DNA from: Escherichia coli
GTDB taxonomy: Bacteria; Pseudomonadota; Gammaproteobacteria; Enterobacterales; Enterobacteriaceae
Length of the DNA: 45,604 bases
Assembly: GCF_003334335.1 (NCBI RefSeq)
Contig: NZ_QOWQ01000036.1
Direction: 5' to 3' (one strand)
Both the position numbers and the translations under genes were made by a program. This document shows positions 1-45,604 of this stretch, piece after piece (position 1 is the stretch's first letter; every line of letters starts with the position of its first letter). The notes beneath the pieces are model-generated. The model searched no databases, was not told where the DNA came from, and saw only the letters and a list, made by a program, of their open reading frames with translations.

Positions 1-71
1 GGTGATGACGGGATCGAACCGCCGACCCCCTCCTTGTAAGGGAGGTGCTCTCCCAGCTGAGCTAATCACCC
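1..71 (-). tRNA. valZ: tRNA-Val (anticodon UAC), 3' end cut by window edge
   Basis: Reverse complement matches the tRNA-Val(UAC) gene; anticodon loop CTTACAA visible; last 5 nt incl. CCA lie outside the window. Gene name from position in cluster (memory). Confidence 0.85.
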
Positions 72-220
72 GATACTGCGCTGGATACTACAAACTACTT
101 CCACCGAACCCACCGTCATTAGTGGTGGGTCGTGCAGGATGACTCGCTTCGCTCGCCCTACGGGCCGTTGCTGACGCAACGTTATCCTACACGCTTAACA
201 TCTGTCTTCGATGTTAAAAC

Positions 221-296
221 TGGTGGGTCGTGCAGGATTCGAACCTGCGACCAATTGATTAAAAGTCAACTGCTCTACCAACTGAGCTAACGACCC
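221..296 (-). tRNA. lysW: tRNA-Lys (anticodon UUU)
   Basis: 76-nt reverse-complement match to tRNA-Lys(UUU) with encoded CCA; anticodon loop CTTTTAA. Confidence 0.9.
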
Positions 297-300
297 GAAG

Positions 301-376
301 TGGTGGGTGATGACGGGATCGAACCGCCGACCCCCTCCTTGTAAGGGAGGTGCTCTCCCAGCTGAGCTAATCACCC
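301..376 (-). tRNA. valT: tRNA-Val (anticodon UAC)
   Basis: 76-nt reverse-complement match to tRNA-Val(UAC), identical to the copy at 1-71. Confidence 0.9.
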
Positions 377-511
377 GATACTACGCTGGATACTACAACT
401 AACTATGTTAGTGGTGGGTCGTGCAGGATGACTCGACTTCGTCTCGCCCTTCGGGCCGTTGCTCATGCAACGTTATCCTTCACGTTTTACTACCGCTTCC
501 ACCTTAGCGAT

Positions 512-587
512 TGGTGGGTCGTGCAGGATTCGAACCTGCGACCAATTGATTAAAAGTCAACTGCTCTACCAACTGAGCTAACGACCC
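512..587 (-). tRNA. lysT: tRNA-Lys (anticodon UUU)
   Basis: 76-nt sequence identical to the copy at 221-296; first tRNA after cpoB. Confidence 0.9.
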
Positions 588-751: not shown

Positions 752-1543
752 TTACATCGCGTTCAGACGTTTTTGTGCCTGTTTAGCGCCATCAGTACCA
801 GGGTATTTACTGATAACCTGCTGGTATACGGCTTTCGCTTTTGCGGTGTCACCTTTGTCCTGCATGATGACGCCGACTTTAAACATCGCATCTGCAGCCT
901 TTGGTGACTTCGGATAGTTTTTCACTACCGAAGCAAAATAGTACGCCGCATCATCTTTTTTACCCTTGTTGTAGTTTAACTGACCCAGCCAATAATTGGC
1001 GTTTGGCAGGTAAGTTGAATCAGGGTAATTTTTGATGAAATTCTGAAATGCCACCATTGCGTCATCCTGGCGGGATTTATCCTGCACCAGCGCAATAGCT
1101 GCATTGTAATCCGTGTTTGCATTACCGCTTTTCACCGGCGCGCCAGCATTCGCAGTACCAGCATCAGCTGTCGGCGTCGTTGATGCCGCCGCACCGCTTT
1201 GATCGCCGCTGGTTGATTGCGCCGCTGCACCACCGCTGCTGAGGCTGTCGATCTGCAACAGGATCTGCTTTTGCCGCTCCACGACCTGATTCAGTTGATA
1301 CTGATTTTCCTGAATCTGACCACGCAGGGAATCAATATCGGATTGATTATCAGAAAGTTGTTGCTGGAGTTGGGTTAAAAGCTGGCTGTGAGCATTAGAA
1401 ATACGCTCAAGTTGAGTGACGCGGTCTTCGACCGAGCCTGAGCCGACACTACTGATTGGTGCCTGAGCAAAAGCGGCCCAGGGGGCCGCTATACCAACCA
1501 GTAACGACAGACTCAATAGTTGATGTCTGAAGTTACTGCTCAT
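752..1543 (-). CDS. cpoB: Cell division coordinator CpoB (YbgF), TPR protein
   Basis: 263-aa ORF with signal peptide, coiled-coil and TPR-like C-terminus; 9 nt downstream of pal. Confidence 0.93.
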   Translation of the reverse strand: MSSNFRHQLLSLSLLVGIAAPWAAFAQAPISSVGSGSVEDRVTQLERISNAHSQLLTQLQQQLSDNQSDIDSLRGQIQENQYQLNQVVERQKQILLQIDSLSSGGAAAQSTSGDQSGAAASTTPTADAGTANAGAPVKSGNANTDYNAAIALVQDKSRQDDAMVAFQNFIKNYPDSTYLPNANYWLGQLNYNKGKKDDAAYYFASVVKNYPKSPKAADAMFKVGVIMQDKGDTAKAKAVYQQVISKYPGTDGAKQAQKRLNAM

Positions 1544-1552
1544 GCAATTCTC

Positions 1553-2098
<546 letters not shown>

Positions 2099-5295: not shown

Positions 5296-6389
<1,094 letters not shown>

Positions 6390-6486
6390 TTTACATCCCG
6401 GTAATGCAACAAAAGTTAGAGCTTTTAAACGCTGCTACTATACGCGCGCGATTGAGGTTTGGGAATGAGGGCAAGTTAAGGGAGCG

Positions 6487-6515
6487 TAAAAATTTATGGG
6501 CCTGGAGCGGCCCAT
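6487..6515 (-). terminator. Putative intrinsic terminator after ybgE (palindrome, possibly bidirectional)
   Basis: Stem atgggcc/ggcccat (6496-6515) followed on the minus strand by AAATTTTTA; plus strand also has a T-run after the stem. Confidence 0.55.
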
Positions 6516-6538
6516 AATTTTTTAAAGAGAATTCTGAT

Positions 6539-6832
6539 TTAAAAGAAGAAGAAAATCAGCCCGACAATGAGAACAATATCGGCAAGCAATGGGCAAAAAA
6601 TCCCTTGCCAAAGAACCTTCTGCGGACGAAAGCCCACGCCGTGAATCACACCAGCACAGACGGCCCACATCAGCAATAAACCATGCCAGATTTCCAGTTC
6701 ACTGGTCTTCGCGGCAAAACGAGATGGGTCCCAAAACATACATCCTGCTAACAGAAGCGCCATCACGAAGGAAAGCGCCCGCAGGGGGCGCTTGTCCATT
6801 ACCGCATACAAAGTCGCGATAATCTTACTCAT
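6539..6832 (-). CDS. ybgE: Cyd operon small membrane protein YbgE
   Basis: 97-aa hydrophobic ORF directly downstream of cydX. Confidence 0.85.
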   Translation of the reverse strand: MSKIIATLYAVMDKRPLRALSFVMALLLAGCMFWDPSRFAAKTSELEIWHGLLLMWAVCAGVIHGVGFRPQKVLWQGIFCPLLADIVLIVGLIFFFF

Positions 6833-6945
6833 CAGATGTCTTCTTGACCGGCTTTGCCTGATTCGACGTGTTCAAGCGCCAGCGCGGTGATTACCCCAAA
6901 CGAACAGGCAAGAAGCGTTCCCAGAATCCATGCGAAATACCACAT
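6832..6945 (-). CDS. cydX: Cytochrome bd-I accessory small subunit CydX (37 aa)
   Basis: Below the ORF-track size cut-off; hand translation from ATG at 6945 gives MWYFA...; stop overlaps ybgE start codon by 1 nt. Confidence 0.8.
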   Translation of the reverse strand: MWYFAWILGTLLACSFGVITALALEHVESGKAGQEDI

Positions 6946-6959
6946 TTTTAGCTCCTTAC

Positions 6960-8099
6960 TTAGTACAGAGAGTGGGTGTTACGTTCAATATCTTCTTTGG
7001 TGATACGACCGAACATTTTCCAGTAACACCAGGCGGTGTAGAGCAGAATGATCGGTACCAGAACCACCGCAACCCAGGTCATGACGTTAAGCGTCAGCTG
7101 GCTGGAAGTTGCATCCCACATTGTCAGACTTGCGTTCATCATGGTGCTGGACGGCATCACAAACGGGAACATTGCGATACCGGCTGTCAGGATGATGCAG
7201 GCCAGCGTCAGGGAGGAGAACACAAACGCCCACGCGGCTTTATCCATACGTGCAGTCAGGATGGTCAGCAGCGGCAGAACCACACCCAGTGCCGGAATAG
7301 CCCACAGAATTGGCGTGTTGTTGAAGTTAACCAGCCATGCGCCAGCTTCACGAACCACTTCTTTATTCAGTGGGTTAGAGGCTGCGTAATGGTCCATTGT
7401 CGATTTCACGACATAACCATCGATACCGTACATCACCCATACGCCAGCCAGTGCGAAACAGACCAGTGTCACCAGCGCAGCCACCTGAGCCGTTGCACGG
7501 GTACGCAGGTGCAGTTCGCCCACGGTACGCATTTGCAGATAGGTTGCGCCCTGAGTAATGATCATCCCTACGCTCACCACGCCTGCCAGCAGGCCGAACG
7601 GGTTAAGCAACTGGAAGAAGTTACCGGTGTAGTACAGACGCAGATATTCATCAACGTTGAACGGTACGCCCTGCAACAGGTTACCGAACGCTACACCAAT
7701 TACCAGCGGCGGAACGAAGCTACCAATGAAGATGCCCCAGTCCCACATGTTACGCCAGCGGGTTTCTTCAATCTTGGAGCGGTAGTCAAAACCGACCGGA
7801 CGGAAGAACAAAGACGCCAGCACGAGGATCATCGCCACATAGAAGCCGGAGAACGCAGCGGCATAGACCATCGGCCAGGCAGCAAAGAGTGCGCCGCCCG
7901 CGGTGATCAGCCAAACCTGGTTACCGTCCCAGTGTGGTGCAATGGAGTTAATCATAATTCGACGCTCGGTGTCGTTACGACCGAGGAAACGGGTGAGCAT
8001 GCCCACCCCCATGTCGAAACCGTCAGTGACTGCAAAACCAATCAGCAGAACGCCAACCAGCAGCCACCAGATAAAACGCAATACTTCATAATCGATCAT
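6960..8099 (-). CDS. cydB: Cytochrome bd-I ubiquinol oxidase subunit II
   Basis: 379-aa polytopic membrane protein immediately downstream of cydA. Confidence 0.95.
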   Translation of the reverse strand: MIDYEVLRFIWWLLVGVLLIGFAVTDGFDMGVGMLTRFLGRNDTERRIMINSIAPHWDGNQVWLITAGGALFAAWPMVYAAAFSGFYVAMILVLASLFFRPVGFDYRSKIEETRWRNMWDWGIFIGSFVPPLVIGVAFGNLLQGVPFNVDEYLRLYYTGNFFQLLNPFGLLAGVVSVGMIITQGATYLQMRTVGELHLRTRATAQVAALVTLVCFALAGVWVMYGIDGYVVKSTMDHYAASNPLNKEVVREAGAWLVNFNNTPILWAIPALGVVLPLLTILTARMDKAAWAFVFSSLTLACIILTAGIAMFPFVMPSSTMMNASLTMWDATSSQLTLNVMTWVAVVLVPIILLYTAWCYWKMFGRITKEDIERNTHSLY

Positions 8100-8114: not shown

Positions 8115-9683
8115 TTAGCGTGCCGGCTGAGTAGTCGTGGAAGACTGCTCAAAGTGATAGCGACCGGTTTTCAGGCTGCTTGGGCCGAGGCGTGCAAACT
8201 TGAACATTAAGAACAATTCTGCCACCAGGAACAGGGTATACAGGCCGCAAATCAGCACCATTGAGAAGATGAGATCGCCTGCGGTCAGTGACGAGTTCGC
8301 CACAGCTGTCGGCAGCACTTCACCGATAGCCCACGGTTGGCGGCCATATTCAGCCACGAACCAGCCCGCTTCTACAGCAATCCACGGCAGCGGAATACCG
8401 TACAGCGCGGCGCGCAGAAGCCATTTTTTCTCGCCAATGCGGTTGCGGATGACACTCCAGAAAGAGAGCGCGATGATTGCCAGAAGCAGGAAGCCACACG
8501 CCACCATGATACGGAACGCAAAGTACAGCGGCGCTACACGCGGGATGGAGTCTTTGGTTGCCTGTTGAATCTGCGCTTCAGTCGCATCAGCCACGTTTGG
8601 CGTATAGCGTTTCAGCAGCAGACCGTAACCGAGGTCTTTCTTCATGCTATTGAACTGGTCACGAACCGCCTGGTCGGTAGAACCAGAACGCAGTTGTTCG
8701 AGCAGAGAGTACGCCTTCATCCCGTTACGAATGCGTTCTTCATGCTGCACCATCAGCTCTTTCAGGCCGATAACCGGGGTATCCACGGAACGCGTTGCAA
8801 TGATGCCCAGTGCGTAAGGGATCTGAATCGCAAATTTGTTCGTCTCCTCTTCCTGATCAGGAATGCCGAACAGAGTAAAGGCAGCAGGCGCAGGTTGCGT
8901 TTCCCACTCGGCTTCAATAGCAGCCAGTTTGGTTTTCTGCACGTCGCCCATTTCGTAGCCGGATTCATCACCCAGAACAATAACAGACAGAACAGCAGCC
9001 ATACCGAAGCTGGCAGCGATAGCAAAGGAGCGTTTAGCGAAGGCGAAGTCACGACCTTTCAGCATATACCATGCGCTGATACCGAGGATGAACATCGCGC
9101 CAGTCACATAACCAGACGCTACAGTGTGAACGAATTTCACCTGAGCAACCGGGTTAAGCACCAGCTCGGAGAAGCTCACCATCTCCATACGCATAGTTTC
9201 AAAGTTGAAATCGGACGCGATTGGGTTTTGCATCCAGCCGTTCGCAACCAGAATCCACAGTGCGGACAGGTTTGAACCGAGCGCCACCAGCCAGGTGACA
9301 CACATATGCTGAACTTTACCCAGACGATCCCAACCGAAGAAGAACAGACCTACAAAGGTGGATTCGAGGAAGAAGGCCATCAGACCTTCGATTGCCAGCG
9401 GCGCACCGAAGATATCCCCTACATAGTGGGAATAGTAAGACCAGTTAGTCCCGAACTGGAACTCCATGGTCAGACCGGTAGCCACACCCAGAGCGAAGTT
9501 GATACCAAACAACTTGCCCCAGAACTTGGTCATATCTTTATAAATCTGTTTGCCGGAGAGGACGTAGACCGTTTCCATAATGGCCAGCAGGAACGCCATA
9601 CCGAGCGTCAGTGGCACAAAAAGGAAGTGGTACATCGCGGTCAAGGCAAACTGTAAGCGCGACAGTTCGACTATATCTAACAT
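8115..9683 (-). CDS. cydA: Cytochrome bd-I ubiquinol oxidase subunit I
   Basis: ORF starts [13 protein letters not shown]...; second Met taken as start (522 aa). Confidence 0.95.
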
Positions 9684-9686
9684 CAT

Positions 9687-18210: not shown

Positions 18211-18380
18211 CCGTAGGCCTGATAAGACACGTTAACCGTCACATCAGGCATCGCTTGTCGGATGCGGCGCTAGCGCCTTATCCGACCTACATTGGTGGTC
18301 CCGTAGGCCTGATAAGACGCGTCAGCGTCGCATCAGGCTTCAATTGCCGGAGAAGGCGATAATGCCTTATCCGGTCTACA
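18211..18380. repeat. REP/BIME cluster in the sucB-sucC intergenic region
   Basis: Several inverted copies of the gcctgatgcgacgc / gccttatccggcctac REP motif. Confidence 0.8.
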
Positions 18381-22613: not shown

Positions 22614-22733
22614 CGCCTGATGCGCTGCGCTTATCAGGCCTACGGGTAATGACTTGTAGGCCGGATAAGGCGTTCACGCCGCATCCGGCACTGGTTGCCT
22701 GATGCGACGCTTGCGCGTCTTATCAGGCCTACG
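22614..22733. repeat. REP cluster between sdhB and sucA
   Basis: Three REP-consensus copies in alternating orientation ending 2 nt before the sdhB stop. Confidence 0.8.
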
Positions 22734-23467: not shown

Positions 23468-25234
23468 TTAGTAAGTACGAATCTTCGGCGGGAATGCCGG
23501 GCGCAGTTTCGGTTCCATGTTGACGCTTCGGCGCGTCATGGATTCCGACTCTGGCAGATACAGGGAGTGGCACAGCCAGTTTTCATCATCACGATCCGGG
23601 AAGTCGAAGCGGCTATGCGCGCCACGGCTTTCGGTACGGAAGTTGGCAGAAACAGCCGTTGCATACGCCGTTTCCATCAGGTTATCCAGTTCCAGGCACT
23701 CAACGCGCTGGGTGTTGAACTCGCTGGAAGTGTCATCCAGACGGGCATTTTTCAGACGCTCGCGGATCACTTTCAACTGCTCAAGCCCTTTCGCCATCGC
23801 ATCACCTTCACGGAAGACCGAGAAGTTATGCTGCATACATTCTTGCAGCGCTTTACGGATCGCCACCGGATCTTCACCGTTACGATTATTGTTCCAGCGG
23901 TTCAGGCGATCCAGAGACGCTTCAACATCAGACTCGCTGGCATCGCGCAGTGCGCCCTGCTCGGCGATAGACTCTTGCAGATGCAGACCTGCCGCGCGAC
24001 CAAAGACCACCAGGTCCAGCAGCGAGTTGCCGCCCAGACGGTTAGCGCCGTGTACCGATACACAAGCGATTTCACCAACGGCAAACAGTCCCGGAACAAC
24101 CACATCTTCGCCTTTCTCATTCACAGTCAGCGCCTGACCGGTAACTTTGGTCGGAATACCGCCCATCATGTAGTGACAGGTTGGGATAACCGGAATCGGC
24201 TCTTTCACCGGATCGACGTGAGCGAAGGTACGGGAAAGCTCCAGGATACCCGGCAGACGGGATTCGAGAACTTCTTTACCCAGGTGATCGAGTTTCAGTT
24301 TCGCGTGTGGCCCCCACGGACCATCACAGCCGCGACCTTCACGGATTTCGATCATGATGGAACGCGCAACCACGTCACGGCCCGCCAGGTCTTTGGCGTT
24401 CGGCGCATAACGCTCCATAAAACGTTCGCCATGTTTGTTCAGCAGATAACCGCCTTCACCACGGCAACCTTCGGTGACCAGTACGCCCGCACCGGCAATG
24501 CCGGTCGGGTGGAACTGCCACATTTCCATATCCTGCACCGGTACGCCGGCACGGATAGCCATGCCGACACCGTCGCCGGTGTTAATGTGGGCGTTGGTGG
24601 TGGACTGATAAATACGCCCTGCTCCGCCAGTCGCCAGCACGGTAGCGCGGGCTTTGAAATAAACCACTTCACCGGTTTCGATGCACAGTGCGGTACAACC
24701 CACCACCGCGCCATCCTGGTTTTTCACCAGATCCAGCGCATACCACTCGGAGAAAATGGTGGTGTGGTTTTTCAGGTTCTGCTGATAAAGCGTGTGCAAC
24801 AGTGCGTGACCGGTACGGTCAGCTGCTGCCGCAGTGCGTGCCGCCTGCTCGCCGCCGAAGTTTTTCGACTGACCGCCAAACGGACGTTGATAGATACGAC
24901 CATCATCGAGACGCGAGAACGGCAGGCCCATGTGTTCGAGTTCCAGAATCGCTTCCGGCCCGGTTTTACACATATATTCAATCGCGTCCTGGTCACCGAT
25001 ATAGTCCGACCCTTTCACGGTGTCGTACATATGCCATTCCCAGTTATCTTCATGGGTATTACCCAGCGCAACGGTAATGCCGCCTTGCGCAGAAACGGTA
25101 TGGGAACGGGTCGGGAAGACTTTAGAGAGCAGCGCACAGGTCTGGCCGCTCTGGGAAATTTGCAGCGCCGCGCGCATACCTGCGCCACCGGCACCAATCA
25201 CAACTGCATCAAATTCTCTGACTGGCAATTTCAT
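23468..25234 (-). CDS. sdhA: Succinate dehydrogenase flavoprotein subunit
   Basis: ORF begins [23 protein letters not shown]; start placed at MKLPV (588 aa); FAD-binding GxGxxG. Confidence 0.95.
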
Positions 25235-25581
25235 CACACACCCCACACCACAACGAATCCATAAATCACGTAAACCACCAGTGCAACGACAATCACCAGT
25301 TGCAGCATCAGGCGCAAAGCCAGCGGTTTAACGTAGTCGGTCAACACCTGCCACATGCCGATCCAGGCATGGATCAAGATAGAAAACAGCGCCAGCAGGG
25401 TGAACACTTTGGTGAACGCAGAGGCGAAGAAACCGATCCAGACTTCATATGTCAGCTCGCCACTGGTAGCGAAAAAACCGACCATATAAATGATGTAGAG
25501 CGTCAGGACGATAGCGGTAGCGCGAACGAGGATGAAATCATGTACGCCATTGCGTCCTAATGCGGAGGCGTTGCTTACCAT
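25234..25581 (-). CDS. sdhD: Succinate dehydrogenase membrane anchor subunit
   Basis: 115-aa hydrophobic protein, overlaps sdhA start. Confidence 0.95.
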
Positions 25582-40080: not shown

Positions 40081-40190
40081 TGCCTGATGCGACGCTTGAC
40101 GCGTCTTATCAGGCCTACGTATTTCCTGCAATTTATTGAATTTGCACAAATTTGTAGGCTGGATAAGGCGTTCACGCCGCATCCGGCATC
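40081..40190. repeat. REP pair between dtpD and phr
   Basis: Two inverted REP-consensus copies (gcctgatgcgacgc... / ...gccgcatccggc). Confidence 0.8.
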
Positions 40191-42287: not shown

Positions 42288-43049
42288 CTATTCAAACGTG
42301 AAATCAATAAGTTCATCAGGGACATCGCAAACAATATGAAGACGGATTTCTTCTCTGCCGTGACTCTTTTCACTCATTGCGTAACTGTCATGCTCTGGAT
42401 TATTTAATTCTTTCAGCGGAAATTTTTCCTCAAAGGCTTTATTTAGCCGCCCCTGGTTTCCTTTTACCGCGAATAAATAATCACCTCCCTGTTTTTGTAT
42501 CTTCTCTGCAATATCTTTCTGGCAACCCATCGCATCAGTTGTGATGATTTTTCCTTTAATATCCAGCATGTTAAGAAGTTCAGGGATAGCTGTGATCTCA
42601 TTGGATTTCTTATCCGTCTTGATCTGCCCGATGACCAGACTGTGCATTGTTGAGAACGCACTAATGACATGAATCGCTCCCCTGCGGCGACTCTTGTCAT
42701 AAGAGTGCCGGAGCGTTTTTCCATCAATTGCAATGACGTCTTTATCATTTGATGAATGGCAATCACGCATCCAGTTAATAAAGCACTCGTGAAATTTTGC
42801 AGGACTGATACAGGATACAACTCTGGCAATAGTATCGTGAACAGGAATACCATTTTCAAAATCACCATATTGCTTCAAGAAATCGAGATGTGTTTCCCCG
42901 AAATCCTCTATATCTTCCCAACTTTCTGCACCAGAAATAACGGCAAAAATAGTCAATAGTAGGATGCCTGACAATTTATGCTCTACTTTCCAGGCTTATC
43001 TGTAATCGGGAATAATAGAAATATGTTCCATCAATTTTTTAAGTTCCAT
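42288..43049 (-). pseudogene. ybfD: H-repeat-associated transposase remnant, copy 1 (ybfD-like), in-frame TAA at codon 18 and 3'-truncated
   Basis: [17 protein letters not shown]-stop(42996-42998)[10 protein letters not shown]... then 228 codons; ends ...[12 protein letters not shown] where full-length ORF-H continues W-K-G-L. Confidence 0.75.
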
Positions 43050-43174
43050 TTGTTCACCTTATTTATGTAAGGAGTATTTGATCATGTATAAGCTATGAAA
43101 AACAGCTTTAGGTAATAAGGAATATCTCAATTTTTAAACATAAAATGCGAATTATTTAGTACAAAAAAGTAGCG

Positions 43175-43429
43175 TTACGTGATCTTTCCCTGGGATACAA
43201 CTCTGGCAATGGTATCGTGAACAGGAATACCATTTTCAAAATCACCATATTGCTTCAAAAAATCGAGATGTGTTTCCCCGAAATCCTCTATATCTTCCCA
43301 ACCTTCTGCACCAGAAATAACGGCACAAATAGTCAACAGTAGAATATCTGACAATTTATGCACCACTTTCCAGGCTTGTCTGTAATCGGGTGTAATAGAA
43401 ATATGTTCCATCAATTTTTTAAGTTCCAT
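43175..43429 (-). pseudogene. H-repeat transposase N-terminal fragment, copy 2 (84 codons)
   Basis: [22 protein letters not shown]...IARVVS then out-of-family QGKIT-stop created by the repeat junction. Confidence 0.8.
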
Positions 43430-43554
43430 TTGTTCACCTTATTTATGTAAGGAGTATTTGATCATGTATAAGCTATGAAAAACAGCTTTAGGTAATAAGG
43501 AATATCTCAATTTTTAAACATAAAATGCGAATTATTTAGTACAAAAAAGTAGCG

Positions 43555-43809
43555 TTACGTGATCTTTCCCTGGGATACAACTCTGGCAATGGTATCGTGA
43601 ACAGGAATACCATTTTCAAAATCACCATATTGCTTCAAAAAATCGAGATGTGTTTCCCCAAAATCCTCTATATCTTCCCAACCTTCTGCACCAGAAATAA
43701 CGGCACAAATAGTCAACAGTAGAATATCCGATAATTTATGTTCCACTTTCCAGGTTTGTCTGTAATCGGGGATAATAGAAATATGTTCCATCAATTTTTT
43801 AAGTTCCAT
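43555..43809 (-). pseudogene. H-repeat transposase N-terminal fragment, copy 3 (84 codons)
   Basis: Near-identical to copy 2 (I13, T19, E23 variants); same junction-derived C-terminus. Confidence 0.8.
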
Positions 43810-43951
43810 TTTGTTCTCCTTAATTAGGTAAGGAGTATTTGATCATGTATAAGCAATAAAAAACAGCTTCAGGTAATAAGGAATATCTCAATTTTTAAAC
43901 ATAAAATGCGAATTATTTAGTGCAAAAAGTGAACTTTTGATGATCTTTCCC

Positions 43952-44315
43952 TGGCCGTTGACTCGATTGCCGTAGCTCGAACGCAAGCACTCTTATCATT
44001 CAATGCCATATTGTTCAAAATATTAAAAACATTATCTTCGCATTTTTTGCAAATTTATATTTGCCCGAGTATAAATGCTCCGATATCTCTACGGATATAA
44101 TTTTTGTCAGTGCAGAATTCAATTGCCAATCTAACAGCGTCTTGCCCCCCTCTTAACTGTAATACTCTGGCAGATGAAATCCTTTTCAAGGAATTGCGAT
44201 CATCAAGTAAGCGAAATAATTCATCATCATTTAGTTTCTTACATTTATTATATAAACCATACTCTTTACTTGCCTTTCTTTTCTGGTATGTATTTGACAT
44301 TGCAGGAACCTCCAT
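43952..44315 (-). pseudogene. yibA-like HEAT-repeat (PBS-lyase type) gene remnant
   Basis: MSNTYQKRKASKEYGLYN...AFILGQI then TAA (44055-44057); homology continues in frame (ICKKCEDNVFNILNNMALNDKSACVRATAIESTA) to ~43953 where the H-rpt terminus begins. Confidence 0.7.
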
Positions 44316-44509
44316 AAAGGCTATCTTTTTCTATCGTTTGACTGTCTGGAGTCCTCCACCTACTCTGCCATCAGCGCACACGATGTTTGATTATCCTTAC
44401 ATACTTATTTTCCGTGGCCAAAATTCAGAATTCTCCCATCATTTTTGCCTATTTCTATAATAAAAACCCCACCAGCAATTTGGTCTGAGTGAATGGTACC
44501 TTCAACAAC

Positions 44510-44752
44510 TCAACTTGTTGTTAACTCAGTGATTTCGTATGGTTTTTCTTCTTCTGCGGCATCCTGTCCATAACGATTCTTAACATATATCTCAGCTAAT
44601 TCCAATGCTATAGCTTTATTTTTAACCAAATTTCTAACGGTATATTTACCTTCACTTTCATACTTGCGCATTATTTTAATATTATTATTACACTGCGCCC
44701 ATGTGTTGTATGTAAAAACAAACAAAGATACAATGACACAGTTCCTAAACAA
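44510..44752 (-). CDS. Small secreted protein, candidate Rhs immunity protein
   Basis: 80-aa ORF 6 nt downstream of the Rhs tip stop; N-terminal signal-peptide-like segment (MFRNCVIVSLFVFTYNTWA); AT-rich like the tip. Confidence 0.5.
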   Translation of the reverse strand: MFRNCVIVSLFVFTYNTWAQCNNNIKIMRKYESEGKYTVRNLVKNKAIALELAEIYVKNRYGQDAAEEEKPYEITELTTS

Positions 44753-44758
44753 TATTTT

Positions 44759-45604
44759 TTACATATTACCATGAACTCTGCAGACATTAGGTAATCCTTT
44801 TCTGTTTGTTATTTCCTTCCCGTGGTTATCTATTGCTTTAAAATTACCACTGGGCGTACCTAAATAAAATGACTTGATATTGTTATCTTTACTTTTAACT
44901 ATTTTCTCATCTTTACCTGAAAATATTTCGTCCCAATATTCTCCATGACTATCTGCACCATGAGTATGATAAGCTGATACTTTCTCAGTACCATTAGGGC
45001 AAGGGCTATTGAATGGATATGATCCTTTTCTTTCTCCTCGGTTAGGTGCTGTTGAGAAATATCTGCCACTATTATCCTTACATATTAAACCAGCGAACTC
45101 TTTATCTTCGCAAATAGATTGGCTATTTATTTTATTTAAGGCGCCATATGCGGTGCTATCTATAGAATCAAATTTATCTGGACCTATCATAGCGGATAGT
45201 GTGCCGCAAAGACCATTAGTACATGCCCCCGATTTTGCATCCTCCCACATAGATAAACCCAGGGGGTCGATGTCTGATATCGGATTCAATTGATATCCAT
45301 ACAGGTTCCATCCCCCCTTCAGTCCAATCGGATCCTGAGTGATATATCGCCCCTGCAGCGGGTCATAATAGCGGTGGCGGTTGTAATACAGGCCGGACTC
45401 CTCATCATACTGCTGCCCCGGCAGCCGGATAAGCTGCTGCAGCTGATGCGGGTTCTCTTCATTCAGCAGGTTGCCCCATTCATCATATTCTGCGCACCAC
45501 GCTGTTGCCCCTTCCGTGCTGATGAGCGCCAGCGGCAGGCCGCGATGGTCGCAGTGGTACAGGTGGATTTTTCGCGCCGGCGTGTACACCGGGTCCATCT
45601 GGTT
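44759..45604 (-). CDS. Rhs protein C-terminal part: end of conserved core plus ~164-aa variable tip (putative toxin); 5' end outside window
   Basis: Core-end signature ...[39 protein letters not shown]; abrupt GC-rich to AT-rich switch at ~45254; Cys/His-rich tip; reading frame runs to the window edge. Confidence 0.85.

Follow-up and report, generated by a model that had tools for sequence, protein, structure and literature searches.

The 37-codon frame at positions 6832–6945 on the minus strand of the window (by which we mean the whole stretch of DNA analysed, 45,604 nucleotides of Escherichia coli contig NZ_QOWQ01000036.1) is almost certainly cydX, formerly ybgT, which stands third in the E. 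coli cydABX-ybgE operon. The gene encodes the single-helix subunit X of the cytochrome bd-I ubiquinol oxidase, and among all the readings considered this is the best explanation overall, with direct translation, solved structures, protein family profiles and RefSeq annotation agreeing on it. The gene is already known and annotated in public genomes, and the observation is correct but ordinary. CydX is a textbook functional small protein, supported by genetics, biochemistry, cryo-EM of cytochrome bd-I and standard NCBI annotation. The lesson is methodological: length cut-offs in ORF tracks hide real genes of this size, which can be recovered from the raw sequence.

Direct translation from the ATG at 6945 gives 37 sense codons and a TGA stop, with no internal stops or frameshifts (ATG TGG TAT TTC GCA TGG ... 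GAA GAC ATC TGA), precisely the uninterrupted frame that a preliminary description of this DNA had proposed as a cydX gene. The 37-residue product is MWYFAWILGTLLACSFGVITALALEHVESGKAGQEDI. The frame has no other start codon between this ATG and the in-frame stop that precedes it. A Shine-Dalgarno sequence, which the preliminary description had suggested looking for upstream of 6945, is present as AAGGAG (6951–6956, minus strand) inside the 14-nucleotide spacer that separates the cydB stop from the cydX ATG; it sits 5–6 nucleotides 5′ of the start codon and forms an anti-SD duplex of −8.4 kcal/mol. Mean Kyte-Doolittle hydropathy in 19-residue windows runs from 1.5 to 2.05 across the N-terminal two thirds of the product, a profile that fits one helix over residues about 1–25 followed by a polar, acidic tail, in agreement with the single-transmembrane peptide described earlier. 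As for why the frame was missing from the ORF track, a mechanical list of ORFs of at least 20 aa contains 105 entries within 7 kb over six frames, and the cydX frame appears in it at that minimum, while a default minimum of 60 aa would hide it. The track most likely missed cydX through its length cut-off, since 37 codons fall under a value such as 60 aa.

The identity of the product is clear from several directions, nothing speaks against it, and a check of the window letters showed no difference from those translated. All 37 of its residues are identical to the CydX chain in nine PDB entries, including 6RKO (chain X) and 6RX4, and it is this identity to chain X that places the product in the CydAB complex, for which structural work has been published (PMC8951039). 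The NCBIfam equivalog for CydX, TIGR02106, matches at 70.7 bits, above its cut-off of 31.6 (E = 9.1e-20), and the Pfam family YbgT_YccB (PF08173) matches at E = 1.9e-14 over positions 1–26 of 27. The model for the bd-II paralogue, CbdX, gives the protein only 21.7 bits, below its cut-off of 57, and the window protein is therefore the bd-I form. The traits of the CydX/YbgT_YccB family are all found here: a length of 37 aa (about 30–55 in the family), an N-terminal MWYF.W motif and one hydrophobic helix, encoded on the same strand as cydB, directly 3′ of it and behind a ribosome-binding site of its own.

A 37-codon ORF is by itself not beyond chance, because short frames are abundant, as the 105 ORFs in 7 kb illustrate, and one could suppose that this one is an accidental opening in the cydB-ybgE spacer from which no protein is made. 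We consider this vanishingly improbable. Nine solved structures contain the identical chain, the product passes a curated family cut-off, a strong Shine-Dalgarno sequence precedes the frame, and a Ribo-seq benchmark with manual curation labels cydX as translated in both E. coli and Salmonella (PMC8921622). Neither of the two outcomes that the preliminary description had named as refuting, a broken frame or missing ribosome footprints, applies. Comparison with other species points the same way. We searched one genome per species with a degenerate DNA pattern encoding MWYFAWI, a sample that is biased to homologues beginning exactly with these residues, and obtained at least 120 matches. Among the 120 matches listed, 115 are complete frames of 31–56 aa with the same architecture; two of the remaining five look like chance (13 and 27 codons), and three are cut short where the locus ends. 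Of the loci among these matches, 111 reach far enough upstream to be judged, and in 110 of them the gene immediately 5′ of the frame, on the same strand, encodes a CydB homologue; the modal cydB-cydX spacer is 12 nucleotides. Over codons 8–27, which the search pattern leaves free, summed column entropy is 33.1 at the third codon position versus 19.9 at the first and 14.2 at the second, and pN/pS, taken as the ratio of mean pairwise p-distances, is 0.44 for the cydX frames among the matches listed. Within the same set L8, G9 and A13 of CydX are invariant and E25 nearly so. Judged from sequence comparison, this pattern of variation marks a gene that is translated and under constraint. Each of the 19 Enterobacterales loci examined likewise has a comparable Shine-Dalgarno sequence ahead of cydX, with duplexes of −7.4 to −9.2 kcal/mol at 5–7 nucleotides. 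Homology, position and conservation pattern together therefore put the cydX frame beyond chance, and we reject the chance-ORF reading on the PDB identity, the profile score, the position after cydB and the conservation.

Within E. coli the locus is universal among the genomes compared. Each of the 5426 complete E. coli genomes contains a 701-nucleotide region of it with an identity of 95% or more, and cydX is annotated in each of 12 records sampled down the ranking of those genomes. RefSeq labels the gene cydX in every E. coli genome inspected, placed with respect to its neighbours cydB and ybgE as in the window. The earlier remark that such subunits often go unannotated holds in general, with 80 of 306 CydX homologues unannotated in a 2014 survey (PMC4325964), but not for E. 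coli today, where the gene is annotated. In strain E2865 the annotated order is cydA, cydB, cydX, ybgE, ybgC, tolQ, tolR, tolA, with cydX and ybgE sharing one coordinate as they do in the window. One natural loss of ybgE was seen, in the complete genome of E. coli NIPH17_0036 (NZ_AP024561.1; locus positions 1769–2025), where ybgE is annotated as two pseudogene fragments, one partial and one frameshifted, directly downstream of an intact cydX.

The function of the protein is known from published work. The cydX gene shares one operon with cydA and cydB (PMC6005532), and that paper describes slow growth, mixed colony formation, sensitivity to reductant and lower oxidase activity upon cydX deletion. 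In a text that summarises VanOrsdel 2013 and Hoeser 2014 (PMC12648545), CydX is said to co-purify with CydAB, to be required for activity and to work by keeping the complex or its di-haem centre stable. Cryo-EM places CydX as a single transmembrane helix along CydA, touching its transmembrane helices 1, 4, 5, 6 and 7 through mainly hydrophobic contacts, and describes its role as mainly structural (PMC8951039). The preliminary description had stated that CydX-type subunits are needed for cytochrome bd activity, and these three sources agree. In the window, cydX would be co-transcribed with cydA and cydB, ribosomes would load at the strong Shine-Dalgarno sequence just ahead of it, and the product would be a 37-residue protein with one predicted hydrophobic transmembrane helix (residues about 1–25) and a short acidic tail. 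By virtue of the sequence identity, this helix would pack on the transmembrane helices of CydA, and the packing would be needed for stable assembly of the haem centres and for cytochrome bd-I oxidase activity.

The neighbouring genes are those expected of the operon. Upstream on the minus strand lie cydA (8115–9683), annotated with 522 aa and encoding subunit I, to which CydX binds, and cydB (6960–8099), encoding subunit II, which is annotated as such and matches NF011579 at 867.9 bits. The mechanical ORF for cydA opens one ATG earlier, at 9686, where two consecutive ATG codons occur (MMLDIV...); the Shine-Dalgarno spacing is 4 nucleotides to the second ATG versus 1 to the first, which favours the second and matches the 522-aa RefSeq form. 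Downstream, ybgE (6539–6832, minus strand) encodes a conserved but uncharacterised protein of 97 aa named “cyd operon protein YbgE” (NF007881, 185.2 bits; TIGR02112, 141.8 bits), and the NCBIfam library identifies the ORFs flanking cydX as cydB, ybgE and ybgC. A G+C-rich hairpin followed by a T run (6494–6517, minus strand; 9-bp stem with 5 G-C pairs), which resembles a terminator as a consensus match only, lies 22 nucleotides past the ybgE stop, between ybgE and ybgC, and likely marks the 3′ end of the cydABX-ybgE transcript. The hairpin is flanked by T runs on both strands and is thus terminator-like in either direction. A weak match to a sigma-70-like promoter was also seen at 6465–6437 (minus strand), upstream of ybgC, and ybgC and tolQ overlap by 4 nucleotides (GTGA) at 5985–5988.

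The preliminary description had further proposed that the cydX stop shares a nucleotide with the ybgE start and that the two genes are translationally coupled. The first part stands: the cydX stop occupies 6834–6832 (T6834, G6833, A6832) and the ybgE ATG 6832–6830, so that the overlap is exactly one nucleotide, base 6832, and the junction reads ...GACATCTGATGAGTAAG... on the minus strand. The motif had been given as ATGA, which belongs to the 4-nucleotide type of overlap; it is in fact TGATG (6830–6834). In the window ybgE has no recognisable Shine-Dalgarno sequence, the best anti-SD duplex being −3.2 kcal/mol at 14 nucleotides by our thermodynamic proxy. By the same proxy the ybgE duplexes at the 19 Enterobacterales loci range from −1.5 to −5.7 kcal/mol, mostly at a spacing of 12–13 nucleotides, and the anti-SD scan found a usable ybgE Shine-Dalgarno sequence in none of these 19. 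The pair shows two of the marks of a coupled junction, namely overlapping stop and start and a downstream gene without an effective independent ribosome-binding site as far as the thermodynamic proxy tells. Coupling could in principle work by the unmasking of RNA structure, which we reject: the 91-nucleotide junction folds at −20 kcal/mol against a mean of −19.7 for shuffled sequences (z = −0.09), no better than the shuffles, and the ybgE start codon is unpaired in the predicted fold. Since the junction RNA is not more structured than when shuffled, only termination-reinitiation remains as a coupling mechanism. Ribosomes ending at the cydX UGA would probably reinitiate at the ybgE AUG that shares its A, and ybgE, which has no Shine-Dalgarno sequence itself, would owe most of its translation to such reinitiation. 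A literature search found no experimental test of translational coupling between cydX and ybgE.

The geometry of the junction was also followed through the other-species loci. Of the loci among the matches listed, 104 extend far enough downstream to be compared; 39 of them carry a YbgE-like gene, and all 39 have a possible ybgE start between −29 and +28 nucleotides from the cydX stop. The −1 ATG overlap seen in the window recurs in 14 of the other-species loci listed, almost all of them Enterobacterales. Among the same matches an overlap of −8 with a GTG start occurs in eight Vibrionaceae loci, overlaps of −4 or −11 in several others, gaps of +1 to +6 nucleotides in about 6 of the 39, and a gap of +28 in one. 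The Vibrionaceae overlap, seen in Vibrio, Aliivibrio and Photobacterium, puts the GTG of the YbgE-like frame 8 nucleotides inside cydX (...GTGAGTAA) and is a conserved arrangement distinct from the enterobacterial −1 ATG.

With cydX itself taken as given, the same junction could instead be explained by independent translation of ybgE, the 1-nucleotide overlap then reflecting genome compaction only and initiation taking place de novo at an unstructured AUG, either without any Shine-Dalgarno sequence or aided by the purine-rich GAAGA. We judge this joint reading to be a serious possibility, albeit one that we do not favour. The start region is unpaired and its fold no stabler than shuffles, for which reason 30S subunits could load directly at ybgE. 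Overlaps of one nucleotide are common; the same TGATG occurs within the window at sdhD/sdhA (25232–25236, minus strand) and is therefore a generic operon feature with nothing special to cydX. The small gaps in about 6 of the 39 listed loci and the +28 gap in one also suit independent initiation, as does the finding that separating cydX from ybgE by a kanamycin cassette caused no oxidase-related phenotype (PMC6005532); the junction is thus dispensable for CydABX function under those conditions. Independent initiation, however, has to account for the fact that not one of the 19 Enterobacterales loci offers ybgE a usable Shine-Dalgarno sequence when the neighbouring cydX has one in all of them, and for a ybgE start that lies at or inside the 3′ end of cydX even in distant taxa (−1 in Enterobacterales, −8 in Vibrionaceae, −4 or −11 in others).

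One may also ask whether the overlap exists at all. An in-frame ATG at the conserved internal Met12 of YbgE (6799–6797; offset +32), present in nearly all enterobacterial loci, would give an 86-aa product and remove any overlap with cydX were it the true start. We regard this as highly improbable: NF007881 aligns over 1–97 of 97 and TIGR02112 from residue 5 of the 97-aa form, the residues ahead of Met12 are conserved as protein across genera (e.g. xKIIAxLYAVMDK), RefSeq annotates the 97-aa form, and no Shine-Dalgarno sequence lies 5′ of Met12. We accordingly reject a start at Met12 on the profile coverage and the conservation of the N-terminal protein sequence.

Weighing these points, we infer that translational coupling from cydX to ybgE is somewhat probable. 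Among the points that limit it is the E. coli NIPH17_0036 genome, in which ybgE is a pseudogene beside an intact cydX. A stronger version can be put forward, in which the last codons of cydX would be the sole initiation region for ybgE, YbgE would depend wholly on ribosomes finishing CydX, and YbgE would be a so far unrecognised partner of bd-I, either sub-stoichiometric or acting as an assembly factor; we think this doubtful. The lack of a ybgE Shine-Dalgarno sequence at all 19 Enterobacterales loci, together with a ybgE start at or inside the cydX 3′ end in most loci having the gene, is compatible with it, but the solved bd-I structures do not contain YbgE. A link of this kind, if true, would tie the output of YbgE to that of CydX.

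As a whole the window is ordinary E. coli chromosome, running from a lysine/valine tRNA cluster through tol-pal, cyd, mng, suc, sdh and gltA to a ybf/rhs region. A scan with Rfam found, at 1–587 (minus strand), four tRNA genes with RtT repeats between them, and the CpoB/ybgF RNA thermometer at 1514–1652 (minus strand, 142 bits). In the same scan naRNA4 (nucleoid-associated RNA 4) was matched twice, with one score equal to the threshold (59.5 bits), and the ES036 sRNA once, the three lying at 18216–18287 (minus), 22659–22729 (plus) and 40111–40153 (minus). Towards the end of the window a 380-bp unit is repeated in tandem in 3.0 copies with 95% match (42813–43954); E. coli DH1 (K-12) has two copies of this unit at the same place, in the area of the ybfD/ybfQ ISAs1-transposase pseudogene. 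The adjoining segment at 43955–45305 has no match in the DH1 locus and borders Rhs-associated sequence.

The closest known system is CydX (YbgT) of E. coli K-12 itself (PDB IDs: 6RKO and 6RX4, chain X), from which the window protein does not differ: sequence and position are the same, and the RefSeq protein in matching genomes is WP_000270282.1. A more distant relative is AppX (CbdX, YccB) of the E. coli cytochrome bd-II (PDB IDs: 7OSE and 7OY2), which belongs to the same Pfam family, is likewise a single helix, and has in common with CydX the N-terminal motif MWY..W..G.LL.CS and a location 3′ of the gene for subunit II. The two proteins are nevertheless only weakly similar (E = 0.015, 18.9 bits), and the AppX gene belongs to the app operon, whereas the window gene belongs to the cyd operon. 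As for the junction, UGAUG overlaps of stop and start occur in E. coli at trpE-trpD and trpB-trpA, where coupling has been tested experimentally. These two junctions and sdhD-sdhA resemble cydX-ybgE in that a single nucleotide is shared between the stop of one gene and the start of the next, on the same strand and within the same operon.
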